From Anaerolineales bacterium (GTDB taxonomy: Bacteria > Chloroflexota > Anaerolineae > Anaerolineales > UBA11579), in the NCBI GenBank assembly GCA_026129255.1, contig JAHCIJ010000002.1:386234-450233 (forward strand): DNA of 64,000 bases, read 5' to 3'. The notes below the pieces were generated by a model, which was not told the origin of the DNA, did no database searches, and saw only the letters and a program-made list of their open reading frames with translations. Each line of letters opens with the position of its first letter. Position 1 is the first letter of the stretch. Both the position numbers and the translations under genes were made by a program. This document shows, in pieces, positions 6,001 to 47,614 of this stretch.

Positions 6001-7831
6001 CCTGGATAGGCTGACGGTTGGCTCGGGAGGAGGCGGGTCTGTGTTCTTGTGCACCCCATGTGCAGGCGGGCAGGGAGGGGCCGGTGGTGGGGCGATACTG
6101 ATCTTTGCGCACAGCATTGATCTTGAAGGCAGTATTGCCGCCAATGGCAAGGCTGGGGAGTGTGTGCTGCCAACAAACAACACGCGCTCCGGCGGGGGCT
6201 CGGGTGGTTCCATCCGCTTGGAATCGGAAAGTATTGAGGTAGCTGGAGCGATAAACGCCACGGGTGGAGCTGGATGTGCTGGCTCTGGGCCAGGCGGTAC
6301 GGGACGAATAGCTGTGTATGCAGATTATTTTGCCTATAGCGCTGTTGACCCCGCCCCTTGGGTGCCAGGAGCTACAGCAACTCCGACGCCCACCCCCACG
6401 CCGACCACGCCAACGTTGCAACCGGGCTGGCACGATGGGCTGTATTTTTACGAAGGTGCCCAGCCCCACGCGGTCACGAGTGTTGAGCGCGGGGAAGACG
6501 AAGACACCTATGCGTATGACGCTAATGGAAACATGCTGGAGCGTATCGAAGGCGAAACCACCTGGACGCAAACCTACAACGCTGAAAATCGACTTTCGTC
6601 TATCAGTGATGGCACCGATACATGGACTTTCACTTATGACGGGGACGGCAGACGGGTCAGGCAAGTTGGCCCAACAGGGGAGGTAACACATTATGTAGGG
6701 GGCGGTATTTTTGAAGTACGAGATGCATTGGGGGATACAGAATTTATCAAGTATTACGGTATTGCTGGCCAACGTGTGGCCATGCAAGATGATGGGGGAA
6801 TCAAGTACTTACTAACAGACCACTTAGGCTCAGTGAGTGCCGTATTGGACGATACTGGAGCCATGCTGAGCCAGCAGCGTTACACGCCCTATGGCGAAAC
6901 ACGGTTTGAGATTGGCATAACTGAGACCGACTTTGGGTACACGGGCCAGCGTGTGTTAGCAGGCACTGGATTGATGGATTACAACGCGCGTTTCTATGCG
7001 CCTGGGCTGGGGCGATGGACGCAGCCGGATAGTATTGTGCCGGGGGTAAGCAACCCGCAGAATCTAAACCGTTTTAGTTATGTGCTAAACAACCCAATCA
7101 ACTTTGTTGATCCGAGTGGGCACTGCCCATCAGGCTTACGTTTGCTCGATGGGGAACAGTGCACTTCTAAGCCTAAAGCCACACCGATAAAACTCACACA
7201 GCAAGGAGAGCTTTTTGAAGAGTGGTATGAGAAACTAAATGCTAACAAAAACGGATGGTGGCAAGATGTTCTTGGCTCTGATGGTTCTTTTACTGTTATA
7301 GATGCTATCTCTATGGTGATGATCCAAGAGGCTCAAGGGCAATGGACCAACCCCCATCTTGGCGAAGCGATGATTCGTGCTGCCAATCAATACTGTAAGG
7401 CGCAATATAGTTCACCCTGCACACGGACTGGCTATATAAATTGGTTTGCGCGATATTCGCAAACTGCAATGTCACTAGTTAAGCAAGGGCAGCCAACCCC
7501 GCCGGATCCTCGTATCAATTATTCTGACTGGAATTCAATAGCTCAAGCCTCGGTAATCGACTTGGGGGCAAGTATCTCTAATCATCCGGTTAACTGGGAG
7601 GTGGGTTGCGTGTCTTCGAGTCCCTGTGGATGGGGGAACAATACAGCTGATATGTTTCCTGAGGCAGTGAGAGAACACTTGCATTTGAACCCAACGGCAT
7701 CATTTACATATTGGCCAGCTACTAATAATTACAACCCGAGTGTCAACTCATTTTTTATCCCTTCGGGTTGTATGGTTAGATTCTGGTTGGCAGGTAACAT
7801 CGGCTTTCATTGCCCAATAGGTATCCCATGA
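1..7831 (+). CDS. Giant RHS/YD-repeat polymorphic toxin, 5' end outside window (TcB/TcC-like shell, LamG, two Gly-rich domains, RHS core, unassigned Cys-rich C-terminal tip)
   Basis: Frame is open from base 2, with no stop before the first ATG at 44. Many YD-type repeats (YDGLGR, YDALGN, YDWLGR, YDHLNR). 'RWRVDRILDRHGNFIDYAYTEE' resembles the TcdB mid domain. RHS core 'YTGQRVLAGTGLMDYNARFYAPGLGRWTQPDS..NPINFVDPSGH' lies near 6900-7125. Confidence 0.9.
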   Translation, partial: YRLGWNEDSEQLTLMYGYQCTTGNPCSTPDTPYTASGYAGTATNRVASRWRVDRILDRHGNFIDYAYTEEQPDPASQIPAFDRASYLATIAFTGFIEGGFEGTVTETPGYTVEFVLGTREGVGDVAPLNFGIWDQWDSQLLERIEIHYDSLLVRSYDFGYAAAAAPNANGTLTLTEIAVSGGGYTEGSISIPSTDATTITFAYDDLPNRAPSGQQNVWSYPRLVSIANGYGGQLNYTYEHDGRGASSWYNYRVQLAEVESGLGLAAVQRYAYATPAYTNQPSNGLGALYGYATVTEAARNFADTADLVQTVYSFGTAGLDIGRLLTADTKDPGGQVLRRVRNTYTTDNSQAPFEGWNFRYVLQSENFEWNGSNLALINKTVFQRDPLYGNLLTRSEYLGGNLYRKQILEYAVNPDPAVYILDRVASQTLRDANNTLLGETRYVYDGGGTLSLGELSLSQTLTGVSYPQSVDAAYVYDVFGNLVETRAYAGYGSAGSAPGGGYSASQVAYDSGLHTYPVSATNALGQSSGSSYLYSLGVPVSVTDPNGWTSSSSYDGLGRVVSTTAPGFGQANVIFTYPSPSNGQVAAPYSMSMQILDTLGPGAPAYRTVTGVYDGLSRILTQSVGGLTTLTEYDERGQVSRQSLPHASGETPRYVETSYDTLGRPTSSTRPGGITTLYSYAGLAVTTIDPNGHRVTRGHDGLGRMIRVDEYSGEHPSTELYASTVYSYTVRDQLVQVKDAQNNLTSISYDWLGRKTSMNDPDMGVWSYAYDALGNLVQQTDARGQSLGFEYDALGRLIEKINVNTSQTIATYTYGSTAGTIGFRMAMSDASGSTAWSYSNYGRTASESRTIDGETYTFTTVSDWLGRVASITYPDSEVVSYSYDALGRANGVVGSQAGTIAQLAYNSISQITSTSLGNGVQVTNTYDSVTSRLSNRNATNGSEDLIDFSYGYDAAGNITSITDAVLGESFAYSYDHLNRLLDADAYIDAEPETYVYRQRWEYDGIGNMLLAGFYVPEEPTPTETGTETSTPTASSTPTVTQTPTPTDTEEEGHVPGGLPGGLLAAAATEAAKATRGAVLRSKVARLLLLDDEPTETPTASDTPTASSTPSPTASHTATATAAPVLLGEWHMNETAGSNVPDSSGKGHNGTRSGATWTVYGVSGGALEFDGVDDYVNVSSTNDLKPTNSFSVAAWVNPSEVGVANRIILIKGAWDYSLRLNSDGYLEFRLGEVSPHTVSGPILPAYTWTYVVGVYNKDANTMQLYVNGQLVAAQAVTGSITHDDNPLRIGAYITGGQYWKGRLDEVSLYDRALTQDEIAARYTSFPTPTPTVGAQTATNTPTTTLTPSLTPSPTPSPSLTPTLAPGGVWGTGQDGNVTIPTATAAHNLHTTNFAAGRTCSDGGDAVVYSVTALSSNSATLSTSPSAGCLNVGDEILLANMQGANGSSINTGNHEFLRVLAVSGSTVTFYTNKENFYGSAGGSDAGIGTGATDQKVILQRVPNYADLTIAGTLTGSEWNGTRFGVLALRVAGELSGAGSLHMNALGYRGGRGGWLDTPRNEHSDAHQGESYPRVGVSSGSPNGGGGGGTNSNRGAGGGYAATGVSGINTTGGQPYGDAQLSHLWMGSGGGGGDHPCSPCSGPTGGAGGGALYIYAHTVDYAGTLSANGGDGACYPVTNNQSSGGGSGGTIRIEGDAITLDGSVTAAKGIGCATGDGSEGRIAVFYGSSLSTSTVSPAAYTEAQATPQPTATPGPAGPWGTGEDGNLSITNPFNMHTQNSGGRVCGDGGDAVSYSVTGLTETTGTLSQSPGAGCLAAGDEVLLIHMQGTSTNYANLGNYELLRVLMVVGSTVFFVNGKTLDYGNDGGDENIGVSDGQQKVVLMRVPNYQNVDIGSTLTGSAWDGTRFGVMAFRVAGELSGDGSISMSERGYRGGNPGWRADGQGELRYAKQGESFAGPGIHSHANNQGGGGGNTSNVGAGGGYASGGGNGINTSGGITYGVDTLDRLTVGSGGGGSVFLCTPCAGGQGGAGGGAILIFAHSIDLEGSIAANGKAGECVLPTNNTRSGGGSGGSIRLESESIEVAGAINATGGAGCAGSGPGGTGRIAVYADYFAYSAVDPAPWVPGATATPTPTPTPTTPTLQPGWHDGLYFYEGAQPHAVTSVERGEDEDTYAYDANGNMLERIEGETTWTQTYNAENRLSSISDGTDTWTFTYDGDGRRVRQVGPTGEVTHYVGGGIFEVRDALGDTEFIKYYGIAGQRVAMQDDGGIKYLLTDHLGSVSAVLDDTGAMLSQQRYTPYGETRFEIGITETDFGYTGQRVLAGTGLMDYNARFYAPGLGRWTQPDSIVPGVSNPQNLNRFSYVLNNPINFVDPSGHCPSGLRLLDGEQCTSKPKATPIKLTQQGELFEEWYEKLNANKNGWWQDVLGSDGSFTVIDAISMVMIQEAQGQWTNPHLGEAMIRAANQYCKAQYSSPCTRTGYINWFARYSQTAMSLVKQGQPTPPDPRINYSDWNSIAQASVIDLGASISNHPVNWEVGCVSSSPCGWGNNTADMFPEAVREHLHLNPTASFTYWPATNNYNPSVNSFFIPSGCMVRFWLAGNIGFHCPIGIP
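3372..3965 (+). other. LamG / concanavalin-A-like lectin domain embedded in the RHS protein
   Basis: 'LLGEWHMNETAGSNVPDSSGKGHNGT...ALEFDGVDDYVNV...FSVAAWVNP...YVNGQLVA...PLRIGA...WKGRLDEVSLYDRALTQDEI' is the typical LamG/laminin-G_3 signature. It is flanked by Pro/Thr-rich linkers. Confidence 0.8.
4094..5218 (+). repeat. Intragenic tandem duplication, copy 1 of a ~370-aa Gly-rich domain
   Basis: Starts 'GVWGTGQDGNVTI', contains 'RFGVLALRVAGELSGAGSLHMNALGYRGG' and GGGxGG runs, and ends 'GRIAVFYGSS'. It is colinear with copy 2. Confidence 0.85.
5261..6357 (+). repeat. Intragenic tandem duplication, copy 2 of the Gly-rich domain
   Basis: Starts 'GPWGTGEDGNLSI', contains 'RFGVMAFRVAGELSGDGSISMSERGYRGG', and ends 'GRIAVYADYF'. 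The order of conserved blocks matches copy 1. Confidence 0.85.
6415..7125 (+). repeat. RHS-core recombination module, copy A (inside the main gene)
   Basis: 'LQPGWHDGLYFYEGAQPHAVTSVERGEDEDTYAYDANGNM ... NFVDPSGH'. It is colinear at DNA level with 9086-9790 and partly with 11811-11979. Confidence 0.9.
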
Positions 7832-8994
7832 GATACAGCTTATCCATGCTTTTGTCTTTGGTTTTGTTGACGGGATGTTCTCATAATATAGATTCTCCGC
7901 CTATGCTCGAAGTCGACGCGACAATAATAAGCCCCGCGGGGCAGCTTGAACCTTCAAGTACTCCGGCGCAGTTGCTAGCCGGGATTGAAGAAAGATGCTT
8001 GTGGCTCTCAGATCTTCCCATCCCTAGGCTATATGGTTCGCTTGTATATGATCGCTACGAATTATTTAGTGACGAATATGGTATTAGCATCCGAGACCTG
8101 AGAACCGACCGAGACTTCTTTGTTAAGGATTCGCGGTGGGCTTATGTATCTCCTAATCGAGAACTCATTGCATTTGAAATGATCGGTGACACCACTCTTG
8201 TCACTGACAAATTTGCTCACGTATTACAGAGTATTCCTCAAAGTAGGTATGCCGGCATACCAGTTAATGGCTGGATAAACAATGAAACTTTGGGTTTGGC
8301 GATTTATCCCAATAACTCTTTGAGAATATGGAACTGGCACGATCGTGAGTATCAAGAACTCTCGCGCGGAGAATTTCGTGACTTTGCTTCCATCGATCCG
8401 CAATGGACATTCGCCGTAAATTCAGACCTAAGCTTATTTGCCTATTCTAGTCAGGAGAACGGAACAACTTCTCTCGTAGTTTGGGATGATGTGCTAAAGA
8501 CTGAGATCGCGCGAATTCTGTATCCATCAAGAACTCTCCCCCCGATATGGTCTCCTGACGGTGGGCGCCTGCTCTTTTCTGCTGAGCTTAACGACTCGAC
8601 ACCTGACTTTCAATCAGGGGATCTGTTTTTTGTTACCAAGGATGGAGAAATAAACCGTTTAACTCAATTTGAGGACTCCTTGGCTTTTTTACAGTATGCT
8701 CCCGCGTGGTCTCCCAGCGGAGAAGCAGTTGCTTTTCTCTTCCGAAGTTCTCTTGATCAGCTTGAAGATGTAGGAGTCGTAGAAGTTGCGAAACAGAATG
8801 TTGTTCGCTATTGCACGGGGAGTTTTGGCCAATTCCTTGGCCCACCGCCTATCTGGTCGCCTGATGGTCAGTACATAATTATCCATCTGCAGAGCAACGG
8901 TTTTAGGCCATTTCTTGTTAACGTTGATTCTGGTGAAACGTGGCCTTTGCTAGAGGAGGGCGCTACCGTGCACGGATGGGTCGCAGGTGAGTAG
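7828..8994 (+). CDS. Exported PD40/TolB-like beta-propeller lipoprotein, candidate immunity protein for the main RHS tip
   Basis: The ATG at 7828 overlaps the RHS stop (ATGA). Lipobox 'LLSLVLLTGCSH'. Repeated 'WSPDGGRLLFSA', 'WSPSGEAVAFLF', 'WSPDGQYIIIHL'. The DNA is visibly AT-richer. Confidence 0.75.
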   Translation: MRYSLSMLLSLVLLTGCSHNIDSPPMLEVDATIISPAGQLEPSSTPAQLLAGIEERCLWLSDLPIPRLYGSLVYDRYELFSDEYGISIRDLRTDRDFFVKDSRWAYVSPNRELIAFEMIGDTTLVTDKFAHVLQSIPQSRYAGIPVNGWINNETLGLAIYPNNSLRIWNWHDREYQELSRGEFRDFASIDPQWTFAVNSDLSLFAYSSQENGTTSLVVWDDVLKTEIARILYPSRTLPPIWSPDGGRLLFSAELNDSTPDFQSGDLFFVTKDGEINRLTQFEDSLAFLQYAPAWSPSGEAVAFLFRSSLDQLEDVGVVEVAKQNVVRYCTGSFGQFLGPPPIWSPDGQYIIIHLQSNGFRPFLVNVDSGETWPLLEEGATVHGWVAGE

Positions 8995-10504
8995 GCTGGC
9001 TCCTGGGAGTGGACATGTCGATGGAAATGTACTCTGGTCATCAGGTGATATCGAGTTGTGCCTAGGTTCTGGGTGGTGGCTTTGCTTGCAGCCGGGCTGG
9101 CATGATGGGTTGTACTATTATGAAAATGTACAGCCGCACGCCGTGACACTGGTTGAACGCGGCGAGGATGAGGAGACATACGAGTACGATGCCAATGGCA
9201 ACATGATCGGCTGGACTGAAGGTGAAGAGGAGTGGGAGCTAGTTTACAACGCAGAAAATCGACTTTCGTCACTCAGTGACGGCACGGATACATGGAGCTT
9301 CACTTATGACGGTGACGGCAGACGGGTCAGACAAGTTGGCCCTATGGGGGAGGTAACACATTATGTAGGAGGTGCGTACGAAGTGCGCGACGCGGCCGGC
9401 GATGCCGAAGTACTCAAATACTACGGCATTGCCGGCCAGCGCGTGGCCATGGGGGATAGTGAGGGAATTAAGTACTTACTAACAGACCACTTAGGCTCGG
9501 TGAGTGCTGTATTGGACGATACTGGAGCCATGCTGAGCCAGCAGCGCTATACGCCTTATGGTGTGCCACGCTTTGAAGTAGGTATTACCGAGACAGACTT
9601 TGGTTATACCGGACAGCGAATGCTTACAGGCACTGGCTTGATGGATTACAACGCGCGCTTCTATGCGCCGGGTCTAGGGCGGTGGACACAGCCCGACAGC
9701 ATTGTGCCAAGTATTGGAGACCCACAGAATCTAAACCGATTTACTTACGTACTCAATAGTCCTCTTAACTTCATTGACCCGAGTGGGCGCTGTGCGTCAG
9801 GAATCATTCTGGACAGTCAGTGTTTGGCGTTTCATGCTCCAGGCTTGCGTTATAGGCCAGAAAATCAAGGTGCGTGCGCTGGTCAGATTTGTCCGCCGGC
9901 GCGAACAGATACTATGTCTCCGCCTCTGGATATTCCGTTAGTAGTAGGTGGAAATGATTGGCTAACAAAGCGTACGAATACAGATCCGGGTCATATTGGA
10001 GTGGATTATTCTGGAACACCCGGTATACCTGTTCGTTCATTAGGGAATGGCATTGTTGCAACATCTAGCGGATGCACATATTATATGGAGTACAACTGCG
10101 ACTACTATCACATTGAACTAGAAAAGAGAATAACAACACAGTCAAATCAAGGTTATGGTCATGTGGTTGTAATTGAGTATCCATATGGATCATTAAATCC
10201 CACTGTCATAACTGCCTTAGATATTCAGCCTGGCTATTCGTTATATGCGCTATCTGCTCATTTGTTGGACGCCCCGGTTGTGAACTCAGGTGACCCGGTC
10301 GAAGTGGGCGAAGTTATAGGACTTTTAGGCTCTAGTGGGTATTCTTCCGGACCACATTTGCACTTTGAACTTCGACAAGGCCCGACTGGTTATGTTAAGT
10401 CACTGGATTTTTACGGCTATTTATGGTTTGGCCTTCCACCAATTAATCCTCACTTGCTAGAACCGCTATACGGCATTAATCTAGGAAAGGGGATTGGGCA
10501 GTGA
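8987..10504 (+). CDS. Orphan RHS cassette: RHS core fused to an M23 (LytM-type) metallopeptidase tip
   Basis: RHS core 'LQPGWHDGLYYYENVQPHAVT...NFIDPSGRCASG', then M23 motifs 'GHIGVDYSG' (HxxxD) and 'GPHLHFELR' (HxH). The only in-frame start is GTG 8987, which overlaps the upstream stop. Confidence 0.8.
   Translation: MSRLAPGSGHVDGNVLWSSGDIELCLGSGWWLCLQPGWHDGLYYYENVQPHAVTLVERGEDEETYEYDANGNMIGWTEGEEEWELVYNAENRLSSLSDGTDTWSFTYDGDGRRVRQVGPMGEVTHYVGGAYEVRDAAGDAEVLKYYGIAGQRVAMGDSEGIKYLLTDHLGSVSAVLDDTGAMLSQQRYTPYGVPRFEVGITETDFGYTGQRMLTGTGLMDYNARFYAPGLGRWTQPDSIVPSIGDPQNLNRFTYVLNSPLNFIDPSGRCASGIILDSQCLAFHAPGLRYRPENQGACAGQICPPARTDTMSPPLDIPLVVGGNDWLTKRTNTDPGHIGVDYSGTPGIPVRSLGNGIVATSSGCTYYMEYNCDYYHIELEKRITTQSNQGYGHVVVIEYPYGSLNPTVITALDIQPGYSLYALSAHLLDAPVVNSGDPVEVGEVIGLLGSSGYSSGPHLHFELRQGPTGYVKSLDFYGYLWFGLPPINPHLLEPLYGINLGKGIGQ
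9086..9790 (+). repeat. RHS-core recombination module, copy B
   Basis: DNA-level colinearity with 6415-7125. The same conserved blocks appear in the same order, through the DPSG[HR]C[PA]SG junction. Confidence 0.9.
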
Positions 10505-11736
10505 TGAACCTGTTTCGGGTTTTTGTCGTCGCGGCAATTCTTGTAGGGTGTTCAAATTTTGGAGAAACGGAACTCCCGGTTTCCTCAATTGAGACTCCTA
10601 TGATTACAGTCCCGACCAAGACCGTATCAGCCTACCCCGGATTTGCTTATAGCACTAAAGTTCCCTTTGAGGCAAAAGGCAGTTTAATTGCTGTACTCCA
10701 TGATGGAGTGACGGTCTTGGATATTGCTGGGGGACTTATTAAAAGTTTTCCGTTACCTGAAAATTGTTCTCCATTTGTTGTTCCGCAATCTACTGAGTTT
10801 GTTTGTAAAGTGGGTGAAGACTTTATTATGTATGACGCTCTCTCTGGAGTAGAAAAACCCTTGGACGACCTTGAGGCTGACTGGATTAGCGCGACTAAAA
10901 ATGGAAAATTCCTTTTTTATGGCTATCAAACAGAGAAACTGGTAGTGGGGGTTATTGATACTAGCAGTGGCGAACACGTTAGTCAGGGACAGATTGATAT
11001 TTCTGAAGTCTATTCTGGCCCATGGAGTAGGCTTCCATACGGATCATTGACGTTGTCGCCCGACGGCAAATACTTTGCATTCTTAGCACACAGTAATAGT
11101 TTAAATATTGCAGATGTTGTCATCGTTAGCGCCATCGACTATAGTTTGATCGCTGTAGAGAATATGCCCGCTATTCAGGATTCGGGAGCGGGCCTGGCTT
11201 GGTCGTATGATGGGCGATACCTCCTTTATGGTTCTCAAGAATCAGCTTTTGCCCCGGAGATTTGGGCTGATGAACAATATCTTTTTGAAGTTGCAGACTC
11301 CCGAGCAGCATTTGTGCGTGAACTTCAGTTGGATCTTGCCGTGGACGAATTCTGGAGTAATCGCTGGTGGATACCCGGAGATTTGATCCCCCCAGGAAAC
11401 AACTTTTTAGCTGACGTTTGGTCGCCTGATAATGAACACCTTGTGCTTTCCTTTTCACGCTCTGATGAGAGCAATGGAGTTCAATATATACTGCAGGGTT
11501 TCTGTATAACCAAGATTATTGGTGAAAGAAACCTTTGCAAAGATATTGTTTCACAGACGGCAATTGATACATACTATTCTATTGACTCTCTGGGCTGGTC
11601 ACCCCGGGGGGATTTTGTTTATTTCGTCGCGAGGGGTTCAAGGGACACCGATGTTTTTATTTATAGCATTGAAAGAGACGAGTTTTTTCTAATACTTTCC
11701 GAATCGGGCATTGTAAGTGTTGAATGGATACCATAA
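10501..11736 (+). CDS. Exported PD40-like beta-propeller lipoprotein, candidate immunity protein for the M23 tip
   Basis: The start (GTG 10501 / ATG 10504) overlaps the upstream stop TGA. Lipobox 'AAILVGCSN'. Repeats 'LSPDGKYFAFLA', 'WSYDGRYLLYGS', 'WSPDNEHLVLSF', 'WSPRGDFVYFVA'. Confidence 0.75.
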   Translation: MMNLFRVFVVAAILVGCSNFGETELPVSSIETPMITVPTKTVSAYPGFAYSTKVPFEAKGSLIAVLHDGVTVLDIAGGLIKSFPLPENCSPFVVPQSTEFVCKVGEDFIMYDALSGVEKPLDDLEADWISATKNGKFLFYGYQTEKLVVGVIDTSSGEHVSQGQIDISEVYSGPWSRLPYGSLTLSPDGKYFAFLAHSNSLNIADVVIVSAIDYSLIAVENMPAIQDSGAGLAWSYDGRYLLYGSQESAFAPEIWADEQYLFEVADSRAAFVRELQLDLAVDEFWSNRWWIPGDLIPPGNNFLADVWSPDNEHLVLSFSRSDESNGVQYILQGFCITKIIGERNLCKDIVSQTAIDTYYSIDSLGWSPRGDFVYFVARGSRDTDVFIYSIERDEFFLILSESGIVSVEWIP

Positions 11737-11810
11737 TGTGCAAACATGACTTGCATGGTCGGTAGGTTTACTTTCTGAGATATTAAATAAATCATGCATT
11801 ATGCTCGGAG

Positions 11811-11979
11811 GCAAACCTATAACGCAGAAAATCGACTTTCGTCACTCAGTGACGGCACGGATACATGGAGCTTCACTTATGACGGGGACGGCAGACGGGT
11901 CAGACAAGTTGGCCCAACAGGGGAAGTAACACATTATGTAGGGGGTGCGTACGAAGTGCGCGACGCGGCCGGCGATGCC
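11811..11979 (+). pseudogene. Truncated RHS-core remnant (third cassette, both ends missing)
   Basis: 'YNAENRLSSLSDGTDTWSFTYDGDGRRVRQVGPTGEVTHYVGGAYEVRDAAGDA' is nearly identical to 9245-9408. Homology stops abruptly at 11979. Confidence 0.85.
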
Positions 11980-12022
11980 TGGAGGCCACCCCCTTGACAC
12001 CTGACCCTGAATCTGCACAAAC

Positions 12023-12062
12023 CGCAGCCTGCGTGCTATGAATGCCGCAGGCTGCGTTGTTT
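12023..12062 (+). terminator. Hairpin plus T-rich tail at the RHS-locus / phage-like-block junction
   Basis: CGCAGCCTGCG - 12 nt loop - CGCAGGCTGCG followed by TTGTTT. Confidence 0.5.
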
Positions 12063-12089
12063 AACGGCGCAGCACATCAAGGGGGATGT

Positions 12090-12917
12090 ATGTCGTACAC
12101 GTTCAGTGAGTTGCTTCAAGACGCTTATATGGAATTGGGCCAGCTGCGCCGCGGCCTGGCCACGGGCGGTAGCGCCAGCACGCTGGTGGATGCTGCCGAG
12201 TTGGCCGGCCAGCACCGCGAGGATGACTGGAAGGACGGTGCGCTGTTGCTGGCGGCCGGCGGCTCGCCGCCAGCGGGCGAATTCGCCAGCGTGGCGGGTT
12301 TTGTGGCCAGCAGCGGTACGCTGACGCTGGCCAGCAACCTCAGCGAGCCGGTGGAGGCGGGCATGGCCTATGGGCTGGCCTCGGCGCAGTACCCGCTGGC
12401 TACGATGGTCGAGCTGGCCAACAGCGCCCTGCGCGGTCTGGGGGATGTGCCCCAGGTGGACGAAGACGTGCTGCCTTCGAGTCAGCATGCCCTGGCTTGG
12501 GCGCGCCGCCGCCCGGTGCGTATCGATTATCTCGCCGTGCCCGGCGTGAGCGCGGGCGACCCATGGCGCACCCTGCACGATTGGGACTATGTGCCGCGTG
12601 CCCCCGGCTCGCCCGGGCTGGTGCTGTTCGCCGAGCCGTTGCCCGCCGGGCGGCCGCTGCGCGTGTGGTACCTGGCCTCCCACCCGCGCCTGGCCGCGCA
12701 TGAGGATGTGCTGGCCGAGGCGATCGCTCCCGAGCTGGCCGTGGCGGCCGTGGCCGAGCGCGCCCTGCGCTGGCAATGTGTGCGCAAGGGCGGTGACGAG
12801 AAGCTGGGCTTGCTGTGGCAAGACGCCGCCGAGGAGCTGCAGGCCGCTCGCCGCCGCTTCCCGATCTGGCGGCCGCAGCGCCCGGCGCGCTTGCTGCGTC
12901 TGCGGGGCCAGGCGTGA
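12090..12917 (+). CDS. Hypothetical protein, possible phage tail adaptor-type protein
   Basis: ATG 12090 is preceded by 'AGGGGGAT'. There is no recognisable enzyme motif. Position and size fit a virion adaptor upstream of a large propeller-like protein. The family assignment is a guess. Confidence 0.55.
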   Translation: MSYTFSELLQDAYMELGQLRRGLATGGSASTLVDAAELAGQHREDDWKDGALLLAAGGSPPAGEFASVAGFVASSGTLTLASNLSEPVEAGMAYGLASAQYPLATMVELANSALRGLGDVPQVDEDVLPSSQHALAWARRRPVRIDYLAVPGVSAGDPWRTLHDWDYVPRAPGSPGLVLFAEPLPAGRPLRVWYLASHPRLAAHEDVLAEAIAPELAVAAVAERALRWQCVRKGGDEKLGLLWQDAAEELQAARRRFPIWRPQRPARLLRLRGQA

Positions 12918-12990
12918 GCGCACGCGTGTATGCGGGCGTTAGGCGCCACACGCGCGGCCAGCAGCCACGGCTGTCTATGTGGAGCGCCCG

Positions 12991-15537
12991 ATGAGCCGCG
13001 TACGCGTGTATGCCGGGGCCAGTGCGCCAAGCCACGAGCTCAGCCTGAGTGACGGCGTGCTGACCTGGGGGCTGCGCTTGGAGGGTGGCGCCGACGGCAT
13101 CAAGGAGAGTGTGCTCACGCCTTCGGGCTTGCGGCTCAACTGGGTGAGCGGCTTCGGCGCCTGGGAGCCAGGCCTGGCGCAGATCGAGCAGCGCGATTGG
13201 AGCGGCGGCCGCGGTGCGGCGCGCTTTAGCACGCAGGCCGCCCGCCGCTACTACGACAGCCAAGACGCCTGGACGCTGACGCCGGGCCGCGTGCATGCGG
13301 CGCCGCAGTGGCGCTATGCCAGCGGCCTGCGTGCCGCTGCCCAACGCCTGCCGGGCGATGTGCGCTGGCAAGCGCTCATCGGGGCGCAACGCAGCCTGGC
13401 CGCCGCGTTCACCGTTGCTGCAGGCGGCTTGGCCGCCAAGCAGGCGCGTGTGTGGTTGCGCCGCGTCGGTTCGCCTGGCGAGCTGACCGCGCAACTGCAT
13501 GCCGATGCGGCCGGGCAGCCGGGCGCGGCGCTGCCCAACTCGGCTAGCGCCATCACCCAGGCGGATGTGACCGATGTGGTCAGCCAGCTGCGCAGCTTCG
13601 ATGTCTCTGGCTACAGCACACCGCTCAGCGCGGGTGCGTATCATCTCTCGCTGCGCGGCGCGGCCGCCGACAATGCCAGCAATCACTGGGAGATCGGTGT
13701 GCAACGGCGTGCCAGCGGCGGGCACAGCTCACCGGATGGCGGCGCCTGGAGCGCCACCGAGTTCTGCGCCTACTACCGCGTGCAGGATGCCGAGCGTGCC
13801 CGCACCTTCGTGTTTTTTGAGCTGCACGGCGCGCTGTATGCTGCCGACCAGTGTGCGGATGGCACACCCTCGCATGTCTATCTCAACGGCGAACGCGGCG
13901 TGGCGACCGGCGGCGCGGCCAGCGCGCTGACCGACACCGACAAGAACTGGCCGGTAGACCACTGGGCCGGGGCGTGGGTGCGTATCCTGGCGGGCAAGGG
14001 CGCGGGGCAGGCGCGGCGTATCACCGCCAACACGGTCAGCACGCTGGCGGTAGCCAGTTGGGACCAGGCACCGGATGCCACTTCGGAGTACGCCATCTAC
14101 GCCACCCCGCACTGGCAAGACATCTCGCCCGGCACCGGCGATCTGATCGATGGCATCGTGAGCGATGTGACCGTGCTCAATGGCCAAGCATTGTTGGCGC
14201 AAGGCAGCAGCGTGCCGGTCCTGCGCATGCGCTTTAACCCGGCTGCTTCACCGCCCACGCATGAGTTCGACGATGACGGCAGCAACACGGCCGACCTGCT
14301 GCACGCTTTCCAGCACAGTGAGCTGGGGCCGCAAGTGTGGCGCGGCTTTGTAGCCAGCGCGGAAGTGTCGCGCGCCGCGCCCAGCGCCTGGCTCACGCCG
14401 CTCAGTTTTGGCTCGGCGATCCAGCTGGGTGCGGATGGGCAGCCGCTGCACAAGTTGCTGGACTACAACAGCCAGCTATGGGCGGTGAAGGCCGACAGTC
14501 TGTGGATCGTGGAGCGCAGCGAGCATGTGGCGCGCCACCTGGGCCTGGAGGCGCAGCCCCAGCAGCCAACCCCGCCGCTATGTGTGGCGCAAGACAAGCT
14601 ATGGCTGGGCTGGGGCAGTAGCCTGCTGGTGACCGGCGCCAGCGGCCTGGCGGATCTTGGCCCCGGCCGCGGCGAGGGCTTGCCCGCCGGCCGCGGCGGC
14701 CGCGTGGCTGCGCTGGCACAGCTCGGTGTTGGCCGCATGGCGGCCGCCATCGATGCAGGCGAGGGGCACTCCAGTGTGCTGGTGTGGGACGGCGAAGCCT
14801 GGCATGAACTGATGCGTGCGCCGCAGGCTGGCGAGCGCGTGCGCGGCCTGCACTGGCAGGCCTGCCCCGGTACGGCGCCGCGCCTGTGGGTGGCGCTGGG
14901 CGGCGAGCTGGCCTACCTGGCCCTGCCCGCCAGCGGGGACAACCCGCTGGGCGATGGCAGCCTGCGCTACCAGCACGAGGGCGTGCTGGTGGGCAGCACC
15001 ATCGATATGGAAGCTACGCTGCTGCCCAAGTTTCTGACGCAACTCAGCCTGGTCAGCCGCAACCTGGGCGAGGGCGCCCAGGTGGAGCTGGACTACCAGG
15101 TGGATGGCGAGATCGGCGGGCCGCGCTGGCGCCAGGCGGGCGGCTTCTACTCCTCGCCGGTGGACACGCTGACCTTGGACACCGGCGAGCTGTTTGCCTT
15201 CCGCCCGCGGCTGCGCCTGCTCAGCCAGCGCGCCGATGCGCCCGCCACGGTTGAGGCGACCCTGCTGGAAGGCTTCGCGCGCACGCCGCAGAAGTACCAG
15301 TGGGAGCTGAGTGTGCGCCTGGCCGACCTGCAACTGGATGGCGGCGGCGGGCTGGAGCCTGCGCCGGAGGCCTTCCTGGCCTGGCTGCGCAATGCGGCCC
15401 GCAGCGCCGCCCGCATCCACCTGCGTTCCATCTGGGGCGCGCTGGATGACACCTACGTCATCGTTGAGGCGCCTAGCTTGCAGCGTGAGCTGGCCAGCGA
15501 GGGCGGGGTGGCGGTGGTGAAAGTGCGGGAAGGATGA
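12991..15537 (+). CDS. Large hypothetical protein (848 aa), possible phage tail hub/nozzle-like protein with propeller-like repeats
   Basis: ATG 12991 follows GGAG. Repeated blade-like segments 'LWAVKADSLWIV', 'LWLGWGSSLLV', 'VLVWDGEAWHEL', 'RLWVALGGELAYL'. No T7 gp12 'GGxSQQ' motif was seen. Confidence 0.55.
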   Translation: MSRVRVYAGASAPSHELSLSDGVLTWGLRLEGGADGIKESVLTPSGLRLNWVSGFGAWEPGLAQIEQRDWSGGRGAARFSTQAARRYYDSQDAWTLTPGRVHAAPQWRYASGLRAAAQRLPGDVRWQALIGAQRSLAAAFTVAAGGLAAKQARVWLRRVGSPGELTAQLHADAAGQPGAALPNSASAITQADVTDVVSQLRSFDVSGYSTPLSAGAYHLSLRGAAADNASNHWEIGVQRRASGGHSSPDGGAWSATEFCAYYRVQDAERARTFVFFELHGALYAADQCADGTPSHVYLNGERGVATGGAASALTDTDKNWPVDHWAGAWVRILAGKGAGQARRITANTVSTLAVASWDQAPDATSEYAIYATPHWQDISPGTGDLIDGIVSDVTVLNGQALLAQGSSVPVLRMRFNPAASPPTHEFDDDGSNTADLLHAFQHSELGPQVWRGFVASAEVSRAAPSAWLTPLSFGSAIQLGADGQPLHKLLDYNSQLWAVKADSLWIVERSEHVARHLGLEAQPQQPTPPLCVAQDKLWLGWGSSLLVTGASGLADLGPGRGEGLPAGRGGRVAALAQLGVGRMAAAIDAGEGHSSVLVWDGEAWHELMRAPQAGERVRGLHWQACPGTAPRLWVALGGELAYLALPASGDNPLGDGSLRYQHEGVLVGSTIDMEATLLPKFLTQLSLVSRNLGEGAQVELDYQVDGEIGGPRWRQAGGFYSSPVDTLTLDTGELFAFRPRLRLLSQRADAPATVEATLLEGFARTPQKYQWELSVRLADLQLDGGGGLEPAPEAFLAWLRNAARSAARIHLRSIWGALDDTYVIVEAPSLQRELASEGGVAVVKVREG

Positions 15538-43606: not shown

Positions 43607-43635
43607 AAAAGCGTTTCCTTCCGGAAACGCTTTTT
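43607..43635 (+). terminator. mgtE terminator
   Basis: AAAAGCGTTTCC-TTCC-GGAAACGCTTTTT. Confidence 0.8.
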
Positions 43636-43645
43636 AAGCTTGACA

Positions 43646-43718
43646 TGCGTCCAGAAGGATTCGAACCCTCAACCTACTGATCCGAAGTCAGTTGCTCTAT
43701 CCGTTGAGCTATGGACGC
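43646..43718 (-). tRNA. tRNA-Arg (anticodon TCG)
   Basis: The reverse complement GCGTCCATAGCTCAACGGATAGAGCAACTGACTTCGGATCAGTAGGTTGAGGGTTCGAATCCTTCTGGACGCA folds as a cloverleaf. Acceptor GCGTCCA/TGGACGC, anticodon loop CT-TCG-GA, T-loop TTCGAAT. Confidence 0.9.
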
Positions 43719-43779
43719 CTGTAGGGAATTATACATCGCGGGTGACAGGAGTTTCGTCGGCGTGCGGAATAGCAACGCT

Positions 43780-43809
43780 TTGTACAGGAAAGGATTTTCA
43801 AATTACAAT
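43780..43809 (+). promoter_or_regulatory. Possible promoter for the WXG-like gene pair
   Basis: TTGTAC - 18 nt - TACAAT, about 20 nt upstream of the ATG at 43830. Confidence 0.3.
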
Positions 43810-43829
43810 TTGAAGCAAGAGGGACACAT

Positions 43830-44795
43830 ATGGGCGTAATTTATGTTAATCCATCTGCTTTAGATGATTCAGCTCAAAAACTGCAGTATTCTGGCAGCTA
43901 TCTTGGGCAAGCGTCACTCATACTAAGTGCTCAGTCGGCGTCCGCGCCAAGCTACGAAGGTCAATTTGGGCCATGGGTAGGTTCAATTGCTGCTGAGGCA
44001 CGTGGACAAGCAAAAAATATAGAAAAAGCAGTGGCTGAACTCGCTGTAAGAGTTGCTCGAAAATCTGCACAGTTTCGTGAAGTCGATGGTCAAGCTGCCT
44101 CTCAGTTGATGTTGATGTGTAATGCCGCACAAGAATTGGAAAATGGCGATTCGAGTGTGATGGGTTGGCCCACATTGTTGTCAAGCACCAACCATCTACT
44201 GTGGGCACCCTTGCTTGCAGGGCTAGGACTTCCCTTCTTGGCTCCGTTTCTTCTTACAACTGTAACTATGGGGCCGGGCCAGGAAATTAATCTGGAACGA
44301 GATAGTAAGGGTGTAACAAAGGCAGAATTTAAACAGCAAATATATGAGACTAATCTCTTCGGAGGTGAAGACGGAGCCGTCGCTACTAAGTGGGGAGGCT
44401 ATAAAGGTAGCTATGCTTTCGGAAAATTCGCCGCAGGCGTTGCTGCTGAAACCCCTGGGAATCTTGGGCCATATGTAGAATTCTCTACAGTTAAATTTGA
44501 AGGTAGTGTTGCTCGCGGCACCCGAGAATTTGGAGGTGCCTTGGGGGGTGAGGTTAAACTTGCTTCTGCAGAAGCCATGCTCGGCGCTCGTGATGGCTCG
44601 TTTGGGGGCAAAATTGGTGTCAATGTTGCCTCAGTTGAAGGGACAGCTGGTATGAATCTCGCTGGCAATTATGTAGGTGCCACAGCAGAGATTGGTCTTA
44701 AGTGGGAGCTAGGATTCTCGATTGGGGAGACTACGAAGATTGATTTTGGGCCGTTTTCAGTTGGTATTAGGATTAGTGAGGCAATTGGACTCTGA
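43830..44795 (+). CDS. WXG100/LXG-like N-terminal domain protein with a central hydrophobic segment and a Gly-rich C-terminal domain
   Basis: 'VIYVNPSALDDSAQKL...YEGQFGPWV...AVAELAVRVARKSAQFREVDGQAASQL' parallels the ESAT-6/YukE layout (IxVxPxxL..A, WxG-like turn, C-terminal helix). Then 'LLWAPLLAGLGLPFLAPFLL' and Gly-rich repeats. Confidence 0.55.
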   Translation: MGVIYVNPSALDDSAQKLQYSGSYLGQASLILSAQSASAPSYEGQFGPWVGSIAAEARGQAKNIEKAVAELAVRVARKSAQFREVDGQAASQLMLMCNAAQELENGDSSVMGWPTLLSSTNHLLWAPLLAGLGLPFLAPFLLTTVTMGPGQEINLERDSKGVTKAEFKQQIYETNLFGGEDGAVATKWGGYKGSYAFGKFAAGVAAETPGNLGPYVEFSTVKFEGSVARGTREFGGALGGEVKLASAEAMLGARDGSFGGKIGVNVASVEGTAGMNLAGNYVGATAEIGLKWELGFSIGETTKIDFGPFSVGIRISEAIGL

Positions 44796-45595
44796 TGAGC
44801 GTAGTCAAGCAATCACTTGTTGTTCCTCATAGCGCTATGGTTGCCATGCTACACCACTATGGAAAGAGCGGTTTTGTTGGTGTGCGCTTTAGCGAGTTTC
44901 AAGAAGACCAAGGGCTGGCAGTTGAGGTGGGAAAAGGCATACAGGTGTTAAAACAAATGGGTTGGGCGACGTCTACTTCTCCTCTTGTTTTGGATGCAGT
45001 CTTTGAGACAACAATTCGTTCCTTGCTGTTCCGTCAGCTTGCCTTGCTCGTTGTTTTGATGGAGAGAGGTTCCACTTATTCCCTGAGCTTCAATAGAAAT
45101 GTAGAAGAATATGAAGAATATATTGAACACTATGTGAACAAAGAAGGCAGTCATGTGCTTACTCGACACACAGGCTATCAAGAGGTAATTTCACGTGTCG
45201 CTGATCTGATTCCTCTAGAGCCAGTTATCCGCGAGGAGCGGCCGACAATTGCGTTGGAGACGGGATTCGTGTCGGAACTTGTTGAGTTGCCGAGGAACGA
45301 TAGTTCCTTGCAGAAGGTGGCACAGATGTTGAGCAGCTATACAAAGGACGAAGAGCTTGTTTCCAGACTTTCTAGGGCTTTACTATCTCCTGTATTTACG
45401 GCTTCGGTCGCATTGATTGAGCTTGAAGGAGATGAGGCTTCACAAGCTTCATCATTCACAGTTTTTGCTGATGAAAACTCCGCCTGGGGGATTTGGCCCA
45501 AGAGTTTAGAGCCGCCAATGGTTTGGGTCATGCCCTCCGATGTGAATGATGTCAAGTCCTGTTTGACAGATTGGTTTCAGCAACGCGTTAGCTAA
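44795..45595 (+). CDS. Cytoplasmic partner protein (immunity or EspG-like chaperone candidate)
   Basis: The ATG overlaps the upstream TGA (TGATG). No TM segments. The tail 'FTVFADENSAWGIWPKSLEPPMVWVMPSDVNDV' loosely recalls the EspG-family C-terminus. This is from memory only. Confidence 0.4.
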   Translation: MSVVKQSLVVPHSAMVAMLHHYGKSGFVGVRFSEFQEDQGLAVEVGKGIQVLKQMGWATSTSPLVLDAVFETTIRSLLFRQLALLVVLMERGSTYSLSFNRNVEEYEEYIEHYVNKEGSHVLTRHTGYQEVISRVADLIPLEPVIREERPTIALETGFVSELVELPRNDSSLQKVAQMLSSYTKDEELVSRLSRALLSPVFTASVALIELEGDEASQASSFTVFADENSAWGIWPKSLEPPMVWVMPSDVNDVKSCLTDWFQQRVS

Positions 45596-45693
45596 CTTTT
45601 GAGTGATACTCTCCTTATTGGCTTGCCTGCTAATTGTTGCAATTGATATGCTTGAAGCCCAGTTGTTTCATTTGCCGTCTTAAGTCCAACTTG

Positions 45694-46756: not shown

Positions 46757-47614
46757 CTATTTGGTGATCAGCAGCGTCCAATTGACGTACGCCGCAGGAC
46801 CATTGTCCAGCAGGATGGTGATGTTGTGGTTGGTGTTCACGTTGGTGAAGAACGCCGTCCAGGTGCTGTTGCAGCCTACGTTACCGCCGTTGCTGGAGAC
46901 TGCCGTTACTTTGACGTTGCCTACGCCAGTGCCCGTGCAGGTCAGCGTGAAACGCAGCTCGCCCGAGGTGGTGTTGCTGTCGAAGCCAGACACGCGCACA
47001 GCCACGCGGTCCTGCGTGTCGCCATCGGGATACGAGATCACATCCGAGTGGGTGCTGCTCTGGTTCTTGATGTTGGCATCTACAGAAATGTTGCTATCCG
47101 CCGGGGCAACTTGGGCGGCCGCCGCCGTAGTAGCCGTGGGGTTGGCAGCCTGGTTGTTGCCGCCGGCTGCCGTAGTGGCTGTGGGGCTGGCTGGCTGTCC
47201 GCCGCCACCGCCACCACCACCGCCGCCAGCGGCCGGTGCCTGGGCTACCGGCAGATCTGCGGGCACAGTGCCTTCAAGGAAGCTGGCCGAGATCCAGCCC
47301 GTAGCGCCGCGGTACACCACCTGCAGCCAGCTGCCGTCACTGTTGCGGCCGATCACTTCCACCGAGGCGCCGCCAGGCACCACGGTGAGCACATCGTGCC
47401 CTGTGCTATCACCGGCGCGCAGGTTCACATCGCGCACGGCCTGCATTTCGGCAGCCGCGCTACCCTCTTCCACTACCGGAGCTACTTCGCTCTCGGGGGT
47501 GGAGGTGACTTCAATATAAATGACTTCAGGGGTTACTTCGGCAGTGACGCCGCCGCAGGCGGCCAGGGCTGCCACCAGCAAGGTGGCCAATAAGAACTTG
47601 ATACGTATATTCAT
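46757..47614 (-). CDS. SH3-domain lipoprotein with a poly-Gly linker and a C-terminal beta-rich domain
   Basis: Lipobox 'LLVAALAAC'. SH3b 'VNLRAGDSTGHDVLTVVPGGASVEVIGRNSDGSWLQVVYRGATGWISASFL'. 'GGGGGGGGG' linker. Confidence 0.7.
   Translation of the reverse strand: MNIRIKFLLATLLVAALAACGGVTAEVTPEVIYIEVTSTPESEVAPVVEEGSAAAEMQAVRDVNLRAGDSTGHDVLTVVPGGASVEVIGRNSDGSWLQVVYRGATGWISASFLEGTVPADLPVAQAPAAGGGGGGGGGGQPASPTATTAAGGNNQAANPTATTAAAAQVAPADSNISVDANIKNQSSTHSDVISYPDGDTQDRVAVRVSGFDSNTTSGELRFTLTCTGTGVGNVKVTAVSSNGGNVGCNSTWTAFFTNVNTNHNITILLDNGPAAYVNWTLLITK

Follow-up and report, generated by a model that had tools for sequence, protein, structure and literature searches.

A compositionally foreign gene pair in an Anaerolineales genome, probably an orphan effector–chaperone module of the type VII secretion type

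A 64,000-nucleotide stretch of an Anaerolineales bacterium (Chloroflexota; contig JAHCIJ010000002.1 of assembly GCA_026129255.1, positions 386,234 to 450,233), hereafter called the window, contains a 1.9-kb islet of two adjoining genes, g1 and g2, whose composition is foreign to their surroundings. This islet very probably represents an orphan, horizontally acquired effector–chaperone pair of a secretion apparatus of the type VII (T7SS) kind, with g1 as the likely effector and g2 as its chaperone-like partner. For the fuller reading, namely that the islet is a horizontally acquired and now detached ('orphan') effector module of a Chloroflexota-type T7SS that works by the mechanism proposed in the Discussion, our rough estimate is three in four. 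We infer that the g1 and g2 proteins bind each other physically and that secretion takes place in this host. The islet and the parts of the pair are listed below.

43720..45650, no strand: compositionally foreign islet between mgtE/tRNA-Arg and a GFO/IDH/MocA oxidoreductase gene; G+C content (GC) of about 0.47
43830..44795, + strand: g1 (locus tag KIS88_06060, annotated as a hypothetical protein), a 321-amino-acid (aa) T7SS-type polymorphic-toxin-like effector
43830..44141, + strand: g1 residues 1–104, a divergent WXG100-superfamily trafficking domain according to profile alignment, predicted to be helix-turn-helix (N-module)
44193..44255, + strand: g1 residues 122–142, a Pro/Gly-containing hydrophobic segment, HLLWAPLLAGLGLPFLAPFLL, between hairpin and cargo, recognized by hydropathy
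44355..44792, + strand: g1 residues 176–321, a Gly-rich, predicted all-beta C-terminal cargo module that has no Pfam family (C-module)
44795..45595, + strand: g2 (KIS88_06065), a 266-aa cytoplasmic EspG-family chaperone-like protein, translationally coupled to g1

Modular architecture of g1

In a word-indexed homologue search, the sole match to g1 was its exact self-match in the Anaerolineales metagenome-assembled genome (MAG), and a lookup of contigs encoding g1 returned no record. A HMMER scan of 1.84 billion representatives recovered approximately 150 relatives, of which 39 had E < 1e-10. These relatives fall into two classes, which align either with residues ~3–93 only or with residues ~160–320 only; few match g1 from end to end. 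Local domain mapping placed the N-module at the N terminus of 101 out of 105 relatives and the C-module at the extreme C terminus of 114 out of 121, and g1 therefore has a polymorphic-toxin architecture, in which a constant trafficking domain is combined with interchangeable C-terminal toxin domains. No cognate immunity gene lies downstream, the next gene being the EspG-like g2.

The N-module has the consensus I.V.P..L ... APSY[DE]GQFGPWVQ ... K...F...D. A profile of 35 g1-type N-modules aligned with the canonical WXG100 N termini of C-module proteins (hhalign 91.7%, E = 8e-7, 89/100 columns), and these canonical N termini themselves match solved EsxA/EsxB structures at ~1e-11. Among 32 N-module relatives compared with Pfam, eight matched T7SS_ESX_EspC and three matched WXG100. 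The canonical W-x-G aligns with W49-V50-G51 of g1, five residues after the Y-E-G that the first-pass annotation had taken for its counterpart; the subfamily consensus at this turn reads W-V-Q, and hence the glycine of W-x-G is not conserved in the subfamily. The HxxxD/ExxhxxxH pattern, which characterizes the C-terminal helix of the WXG100 superfamily (PMC3935865), appears in g1 as F82-REV-D86-GQ-A89-ASQ-L93 and recurs in 28 of the 35 N-module members, with F82 invariant and D86 nearly so. AlphaFold2 predicted helices at residues 16–42 and 51–104, separated by a loop at 43–50, with a predicted local distance difference test (pLDDT) score of only 50–60 in this region.

When g1 alone was compared with models of the WXG100 clan (PF06013, PF10824 or similar), none matched at E ≤ 1. 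There was also no match to LXG (PF04740), the helical domain spanning about 100 residues and not about 200. Judged by the profile alignments, the N-terminal domain of g1 is a divergent WXG100-superfamily trafficking domain of an 'APSY[DE]GQFGPW' subtype. Of the WXG100/LXG-like N terminus proposed in the first-pass annotation, from which every quoted peptide string is present in the translations, the WXG100 part thus stands and the LXG part does not: g1 would work like an LXG toxin but falls outside the LXG family in the strict Pfam sense.

The C termini that follow the N-module in 32 relatives comprise CHAP (9), Peptidase_C39_2 (4) and Peptidase_M23 (3) domains, together with alpha/beta hydrolases and SH3 domains. 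Another N-module toxin, of 282 aa (L019, 4151..4999, + strand), ends in a helical glycine-zipper membrane segment with nine GxxxG motifs and two transmembrane (TM)-like stretches. One trafficking domain thus carries putative membrane cargos of two types, helical-zipper and beta.

Residues 122–142 of g1, between hairpin and cargo, are strongly hydrophobic, as had been noticed from the sequence at first sight (Kyte–Doolittle 21-residue mean, 1.69). Of 35 proteins with a variant N-module, 14 have a comparable stretch independently of the cargo, as opposed to 8 of 64 canonical-WXG proteins; the linker of a twin toxin at locus L046, described below, has one too. Because the stretch is present whatever the cargo and also in this twin, we assign the linker to the delivery section rather than the cargo; it might serve for membrane insertion, be shielded by the chaperone, or do both.

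The C-module spans ~130 residues, is carried by 121 relatives and has the core ...AE.F.G.KDG..GA..G..L.S.EG..G.N.AG.NVGV.GE.GLK.ELGF.IG..T..KLGPFS.G.SFG.A. Its N-terminal partners, assigned with Pfam in 117 proteins, were WXG100 in 65 (best 9e-14), EspC in five, PPE in five, LXG in four (weak) and PAAR in one (5e-22); WXG100_2 and T7SS_signal domains were also found, and several of these proteins are already labelled 'WXG100 family type VII secretion target' in the data sources. Since these N termini are mostly WXG100 with other delivery domains besides, the C-module behaves as a mobile, mainly T7SS-delivered toxin cargo. C-modules also stand behind non-WXG N termini, in P0037 (912 aa, zinc-ribbon/TM-rich), in P0090 (629 aa, with a signal peptide) and in the PAAR protein, which suggests that they are used by other delivery routes, the type VI secretion system (T6SS) included.

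In the column profile of the C-module, hydrophobic positions alternate with Gly or polar ones in a dyad pattern, with strands of 10–12 residues and Gly/Asn/Asp turns between them. The periodicity power was 0.54 at 180 degrees compared with 0.04 at 100 degrees (z = 2.6 against shuffles), and AlphaFold2 placed nine hairpin strands, mostly of 10–12 residues, within residues 200–313, at low pLDDT. No PDB sequence matched the C-module, and isolated C-modules gave only marginal STb_secrete matches in Pfam at E ≤ 10. Going by the amphipathic beta pattern and by analogy, we tentatively suggest that the C-module may permeabilize membranes after insertion.

The partner protein g2

The start codon of g2 overlaps the stop codon of g1 by 1 nt (TGATG), and neither a signal peptide nor a TM segment was found in g2 or in the family of partner (P) proteins to which we compared it; the overlap and the soluble character of g2 had both been read correctly in the first pass. 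A word-indexed homologue search with g2 returned only g2 itself. A hidden Markov model (HMM) of six P proteins, from which g2 was left out, scored g2 at 19.8 bits (best of 1,000 shuffles, 8.2), and an HMM of 11 P proteins, from which both g2 and the L046 partner were left out, scored it at 34.1 bits (E = 1.6e-12; best of 1,000 shuffles, 8.3). With hhalign, g2 aligned with the 11-protein family over 252/266 residues (99.2%, E = 1.6e-19).

Seven of 21 P proteins matched Pfam PF14011 (ESX-1_EspG), two of them exceeding its gathering score across the full model length; the partner at L053 reached 42 bits (E = 1.1e-10, model positions 4–245 of 245; gathering score, 27) and the second partner at L046 reached 30.3 bits. 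Because the P-family HMM and hhalign tie g2 to members that pass the Pfam EspG cut-off, g2 is, as far as its sequence tells, a diverged EspG-family protein. The profiles of the P family found no EspG match among PDB sequences. A match of the family profile to a DUF262 protein (0.0028) covered 86 residues and was judged spurious, and an indexed search with a concatenated C-module and partner query returned toxin-family proteins and zero new members of the partner family.

P genes lie directly 3' of toxins with diverse cargos: CHAP (L053), M23 (L087), hydrophobic-helical (L012, L023 and L026), another type (L080 and L086) and Gly-rich (L046 and L058). The first-pass annotation had considered g2 to be either an EspG-type chaperone or an immunity protein. 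The link to the P family bears out the former, and the presence of that family behind toxins with at least five unrelated cargos argues that g2 is not a cognate immunity protein.

Loci of the relatives

A genome scan with the C-module yielded five loci, all in Chloroflexota MAGs. Four of these show the gene order toxin, ~217-aa membrane protein anchored at its N terminus (T), ~260-aa soluble P protein; the contig of the fifth ends too early to show the order. A metagenome scan with the N-module added 80 further loci, one of which, L046, holds the closest twin of the islet pair. Over their full lengths, its toxin (347 versus 321 aa) and g1 share 30% identity (E = 5e-33), and the product of the gene directly after the toxin (268 versus 266 aa) and g2 share 29% (E = 8e-35). 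The toxin–partner pair is thus conserved as a unit.

The L046 pair adjoins a divergent 1380-aa open reading frame (ORF) with three FtsK_SpoIIIE stretches (1.5e-60), and the same locus contains small WXG100-like genes as well as a further N-module toxin and one more EspG-like gene. Three FtsK_SpoIIIE stretches are present at L012 and L026 as well (1e-59 to 1e-69 across the three loci). HMM searches detected an EssC-like ATPase in 14 fetched loci, and in many loci clusters of two or three WXG100-like genes encoding 88–103 aa lie 5' of the toxins. The relatives of the islet pair are therefore linked to both EssC and small WXG100 genes.

Other genes in these loci were noted in passing. Judged by eye, a 246-aa ORF at the end of the L046 locus (12645..13385, + strand) seems to combine a ubiquitin-like (YukD/EsaB-type) N-terminal domain with a C-terminal FHA domain, and another L046 ORF (1474..2316) looks PP2C phosphatase-like. 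In Thermoflexales, a cassette (L006, 7441..13400; also L007 and L009–L011) consists of a WXG100 toxin, a pair made of a TM protein (T) and an EspG-like protein, and then genes for 379, 46 and 201 aa; none of these has a Pfam match, and all of them recur in conserved form in many samples. The T and EspG-like pair is tandemly repeated in L006 and L009, and the toxin protein is found on 58 contigs. At L031 (1296..5231, − strand), L037 (two copies) and L089 (804..4712 and 5589..9437, both − strand), all N-module toxin loci, the large ORF nearby encodes, in place of EssC, a protein of ~1,300 aa with Ser/Thr kinase, AAA_16 ATPase, TPR and family-5 solute-binding domains (Pfam), an unusual sensor-like architecture for a neighbour of T7SS-type toxins.

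Composition and borders of the islet

Both genes are visibly richer in AT than either flank, as the first-pass annotation had stated. GC is 0.48 in g1 and 0.47 in g2, compared with 0.62–0.65 in four neighbouring genes, and GC at third codon positions is 0.36 and 0.46 compared with 0.80–0.83. The 1.9-kb islet as a whole has a GC of 0.472 (z = −2.6 with all 1.8-kb windows of the 64-kb stretch as reference). Pfam identifies the flanking genes as MgtE on one side and the GFO/IDH/MocA oxidoreductase on the other, both housekeeping. The loci of the closest relatives have a GC of 0.40–0.49, which is islet-like and unlike the 60–65% GC host, and on this ground we regard the islet as horizontally acquired. 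It appears to be a recently transferred unit of toxin and chaperone, whose donor would be a lineage of lower GC that has this unit within a complete T7SS-type locus.

The left border of the islet and the sequence upstream of g1 contain the following features.

43646..43718, − strand: tRNA-Arg (anticodon TCG; ARAGORN), the left border of the islet and outside the system, with its 5' end towards the islet
43719..43829, + strand: AT-rich leader 5' of g1, with one sigma-70-like site and one Shine–Dalgarno (SD)-like site
43781..43809, + strand: sigma-70-like site TGTACA-17-TACAAT (promoter scan; one found versus a shuffle mean of 2.4)
43819..43824, + strand: SD-like GAGGGA, read from the sequence, 5 nt before the g1 ATG

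A scan of the islet for promoters and terminators gave nothing beyond chance level, and because its count is no higher than in shuffles, the promoter-like site is weak evidence. The tRNA-Arg does abut the islet, as had been pointed out; its 5' end faces the islet, no att-like direct repeats of the tRNA end were found at the opposite border, and g1 and g2 matched no phage or plasmid relatives. For these reasons, the adjacency does not support integrase-mediated insertion. An island inserted by a tRNA integrase and an origin from a phage or plasmid were both rejected, the former because the islet lies on the 5' side of the tRNA without att-like repeats and the latter on zero matches. The islet consists of two genes only; absence of an integrase from the window was not exhaustively tested.

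Discussion

We propose that g2 would be co-translated with g1 and would bind the helical and hydrophobic N-terminal part of g1, so that g1 stays soluble and non-toxic in the producer. The chaperone-like protein would then pass g1 to an ATPase of the EssC/EccC type, whose gene would lie at another site of the genome, and the exported beta-hairpin cargo would enter a target membrane and permeabilize it.

Several results weigh against this reading. Compared on their own, g1 had no match in Pfam (E ≤ 1), NCBIfam or PDB sequences, and g2 had none in Pfam or NCBIfam (E ≤ 1) or the PDB, which makes both family assignments transitive, by way of relatives. Structure prediction verified neither the EspG fold of g2 nor any fold of the cargo: the AlphaFold2 model of g1, built from a 23-row multiple sequence alignment, had a pLDDT of 42 and no significant Foldseek match in the PDB, and that of g2, from the single sequence, had a pLDDT of 48.9 and a best PDB match at a non-significant E of 2.2. 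The weak Foldseek list for g1 was rich in membrane beta-structures and was not counted as evidence. The evidence for membrane activity of the cargo consists of the periodicity (z = 2.6) and analogy. Of the 43 N-module loci that offered 1 kb or more of DNA downstream, only 9 had a detectable EspG-like gene there, which rules out a universal coupling to N-module toxins and makes the EspG-like gene an accessory of a toxin subset. Secretion genes are absent from the window, too. An EssC-like HMM, built from verified EssC-like proteins, scored at best 4.5 bits there (E = 0.14), in agreement with the first-pass annotation, which had seen no EssC/EccC-type ATPase. The window also has no small WXG100 gene, the WXG-type HMM matching only g1, and neither the islet nor the window has a T-family protein or another TM or small immunity candidate; models of the T and partner families matched no window ORF besides g2 (partner family).

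An alternative that we consider unlikely, although it is the strongest of the three weighed here, is that the pair is an inert recent transfer, broken from a donor T7SS locus into a genome without a compatible secretion machine. The strongly unameliorated composition, the lack of EssC, WXG100 and immunity genes in the window, the loss of the middle TM gene that related cassettes have, and promoter evidence at chance level would all fit. However, both ORFs are intact and of full length compared with the L046 pair, and the coupling and the SD-like site have been kept. Related toxin cassettes in other Chloroflexota MAGs, too, are separated from any EssC by more than 10 kb, a common situation for T7SS effectors. 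This alternative, moreover, concerns activity in the host and not the identity of the module.

Somewhat less probable again is that g2 is primarily a cytoplasmic immunity or neutralizing protein for the Gly-rich domain, guarding the producer before export in the way that soluble ExiAB does for EsxX, which has separate soluble and membrane protectors (PMC12744356). This precedent of paired protectors for a membrane-active T7SS toxin speaks for it, as do the position of g2, directly 3' of g1 and translationally coupled, and the window's lack of another immunity candidate. Family members accompany the Gly-rich module at all loci where DNA downstream was available, further copies that look like orphans lie apart from toxins (L005, 13220..14005; L001, 573..1397), and the pair of TM protein and partner is tandemly duplicated in the Thermoflexales cassettes. 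Yet the same family follows CHAP, M23, hydrophobic-helical and other cargos, a sharing that would be unexpected of cognate immunity proteins, and the partner resides in the cytoplasm, on the other side of the membrane from where CHAP and M23 cargos act. Members of the family also score above the Pfam cut-off for EspG along the entire model. We therefore rejected immunity as the primary function of g2, given the at least five unrelated cargos, while noting that chaperoning and neutralization before secretion can coexist.

That g1 is instead a T7SS-exported envelope protein of the producer, with the beta-hairpin module as a channel or surface structure in the manner of the EspG-dependent PE/PPE proteins of mycobacteria, is improbable: the lack of an immunity gene with the pair both in the window and at L046, the classical service of EspG chaperones to PE/PPE (PMC10765036), the Pfam PPE matches of five relatives' N termini, one relative's match to OMP_b-brl at 3e-5 and the beta-barrel-like dyad periodicity of the cargo are outweighed by the module's filling the same C-terminal slot as CHAP, M23, C39 and lipase on the same trafficking domain, by its one fusion to PAAR, a T6SS toxin adaptor, by the conserved membrane-anchored protein that canonical-WXG cassettes add 3' of the module, fitting an immunity role, and by the absence of significant similarity between the isolated module and outer-membrane protein families.

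As an orphan effector–chaperone pair, the islet closely recalls the Bacillus subtilis yfjA operon, which encodes the WXG100 protein YfjA, the glycine-zipper membrane-active toxin YfjB, the EspG-fold protein YfjC and the membrane-anchored antitoxin YfjD/E (bioRxiv 10.1101/2023.08.02.551746; PMC10765036), and in which YfjC is required for YfjB toxicity (bioRxiv 10.1101/2023.08.02.551746). By description, g1 and g2 resemble YfjB and YfjC, a T7SS toxin with a hydrophobic, Gly-rich and putatively membrane-active C terminus followed by a soluble EspG-like protein. The related Chloroflexota cassettes, with a membrane-anchored protein in the antitoxin position, match the yfjA operon part for part. Whereas the active region of YfjB is predicted to be helical with GxxxGxxxG zippers, the g1 cargo is a ~130-residue, predicted all-beta module with dyad periodicity, and whereas the g2 family has sequence similarity to EspG, YfjC has none. 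In addition, g1 has its own WXG100-type domain, and the window lacks a WXG100 partner gene and an antitoxin.

LXG toxins of T7SSb, such as TelE, EsxX and TspA, share with g1 a WXG100-superfamily helical N-terminal domain and interchangeable C-terminal toxins; membrane-depolarizing cargos with Gly-rich motifs are known among them, and their cassettes often lie far from the core locus (PMC10434224, PMC12744356, PMC10801868). TelE, for instance, is a Gly-rich membrane toxin on an LXG carrier (PMC10434224). The g1 N-terminal domain, however, is WXG100/EspC-like and has ~100 residues rather than the ~200 of LXG. The accessory is of the globular EspG type and not a small helical Lap (Lap/DUF3130/DUF3958/DUF4176 targeting factors), the cargo is beta-type by prediction and not a helical glycine zipper, and the phylum is Chloroflexota and not Bacillota.

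EspG is the adapter chaperone of the actinobacterial T7SSa, and EsaE and YfjC have EspG-like predicted folds without sequence similarity to it (PMC10765036). Like the mycobacterial PE/PPE–EspG systems, the relatives of the islet combine a ~260–300-aa cytoplasmic EspG chaperone with helical-hairpin substrates and an EccC/EssC ATPase, and the g2 family is related in sequence to PF14011; instead of PE–PPE heterodimers, however, the substrates in Chloroflexota are WXG100-fused toxins of a single chain, whose cargos are enzymatic or beta-type. In the EsaD–EsaE–EsaG system of Staphylococcus aureus, the globular chaperone EsaE, with its EspG-like predicted fold, binds the N-terminal region of the toxin and targets the complex to EssC (PMC10765036), which resembles the role proposed for g2. 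EsaD, though, is a nuclease with the cytoplasmic immunity protein EsaG, whereas the islet has no immunity gene, and EsaE is not related in sequence to EspG. What sets the islet pair apart from known systems is the combination of an uncharacterized beta-type cargo, a sequence-recognizable EspG chaperone, a short WXG100/EspC-like carrier and the phylum Chloroflexota.

If the reading as an effector–chaperone module is right, two 'hypothetical proteins' become a defined pair in annotation, and the repertoire of secreted antibacterial toxins gains a cargo domain of ~120 representative clusters for which Pfam has no family; its beta-hairpin architecture would set it off from the membrane toxins described for T7SS to date, which are helical glycine-zipper proteins. 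T7SS-type secretion in Chloroflexota, for which the literature searched mentions just a few WXG100 sequences (PMC3935865, PMC10765036), would then have candidates for study in toxin, chaperone, membrane-anchored T protein and EssC-like ATPase. EspG chaperones detectable by sequence would be coupled to WXG100-fused toxins outside Actinomycetota, so that the chaperone logic of T7SSa would meet the toxin logic of T7SSb.

A bolder proposal, which we consider doubtful, is that the C-module constitutes an unrecognized class of beta-hairpin (beta-barrel-type) permeabilizing toxin, exported by T7SS and occasionally, through PAAR, by T6SS, and that the Chloroflexota loci are hybrids of T7SSa and T7SSb. 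Were this so, the C-module would be the first beta-type pore-former among T7SS effectors. EspG chaperones recognizable by sequence, a hallmark of the actinobacterial T7SSa, would serve single-chain WXG100-fused antibacterial toxins, a T7SSb hallmark.

Other features of the window

Between the mgtE stop codon and the 3' end of the tRNA-Arg gene, a 4-nt loop separates the two arms of a perfect 12-nt inverted repeat (AAAAGCGTTTCC / GGAAACGCTTTT; 43607..43634), which looks like a shared bidirectional terminator. On the other side of the islet, just 3' of the oxidoreductase gene, an SH3_3-domain lipoprotein-like ORF (46757..47614, − strand) contains an 11-residue poly-Gly run and Ala/Thr-rich linkers; SH3 domains are also found on several N-module toxins.

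The window has a second region of low GC at ~6.8–12.1 kb (stretches 6801–9125 and 9576–12150), larger than the islet. It corresponds to an RHS polymorphic-toxin locus ~32 kb upstream of the islet, with ORFs at 44..7831 (+ strand), 7810..8994, 8987..10504 and 10501..11736. An RHS/YD-repeat protein of 2,595 aa is encoded in the locus (RHS_repeat, 1.7e-38; Laminin_G_3), and its gene becomes AT-rich (GC 0.46–0.48) at the 3' end, as are the genes downstream. The product of one of these downstream genes, 505 aa long, joins a YD-shell fragment to Peptidase_M23 and resembles an orphan Rhs toxin tip; beta-propeller-like ORFs flank it.

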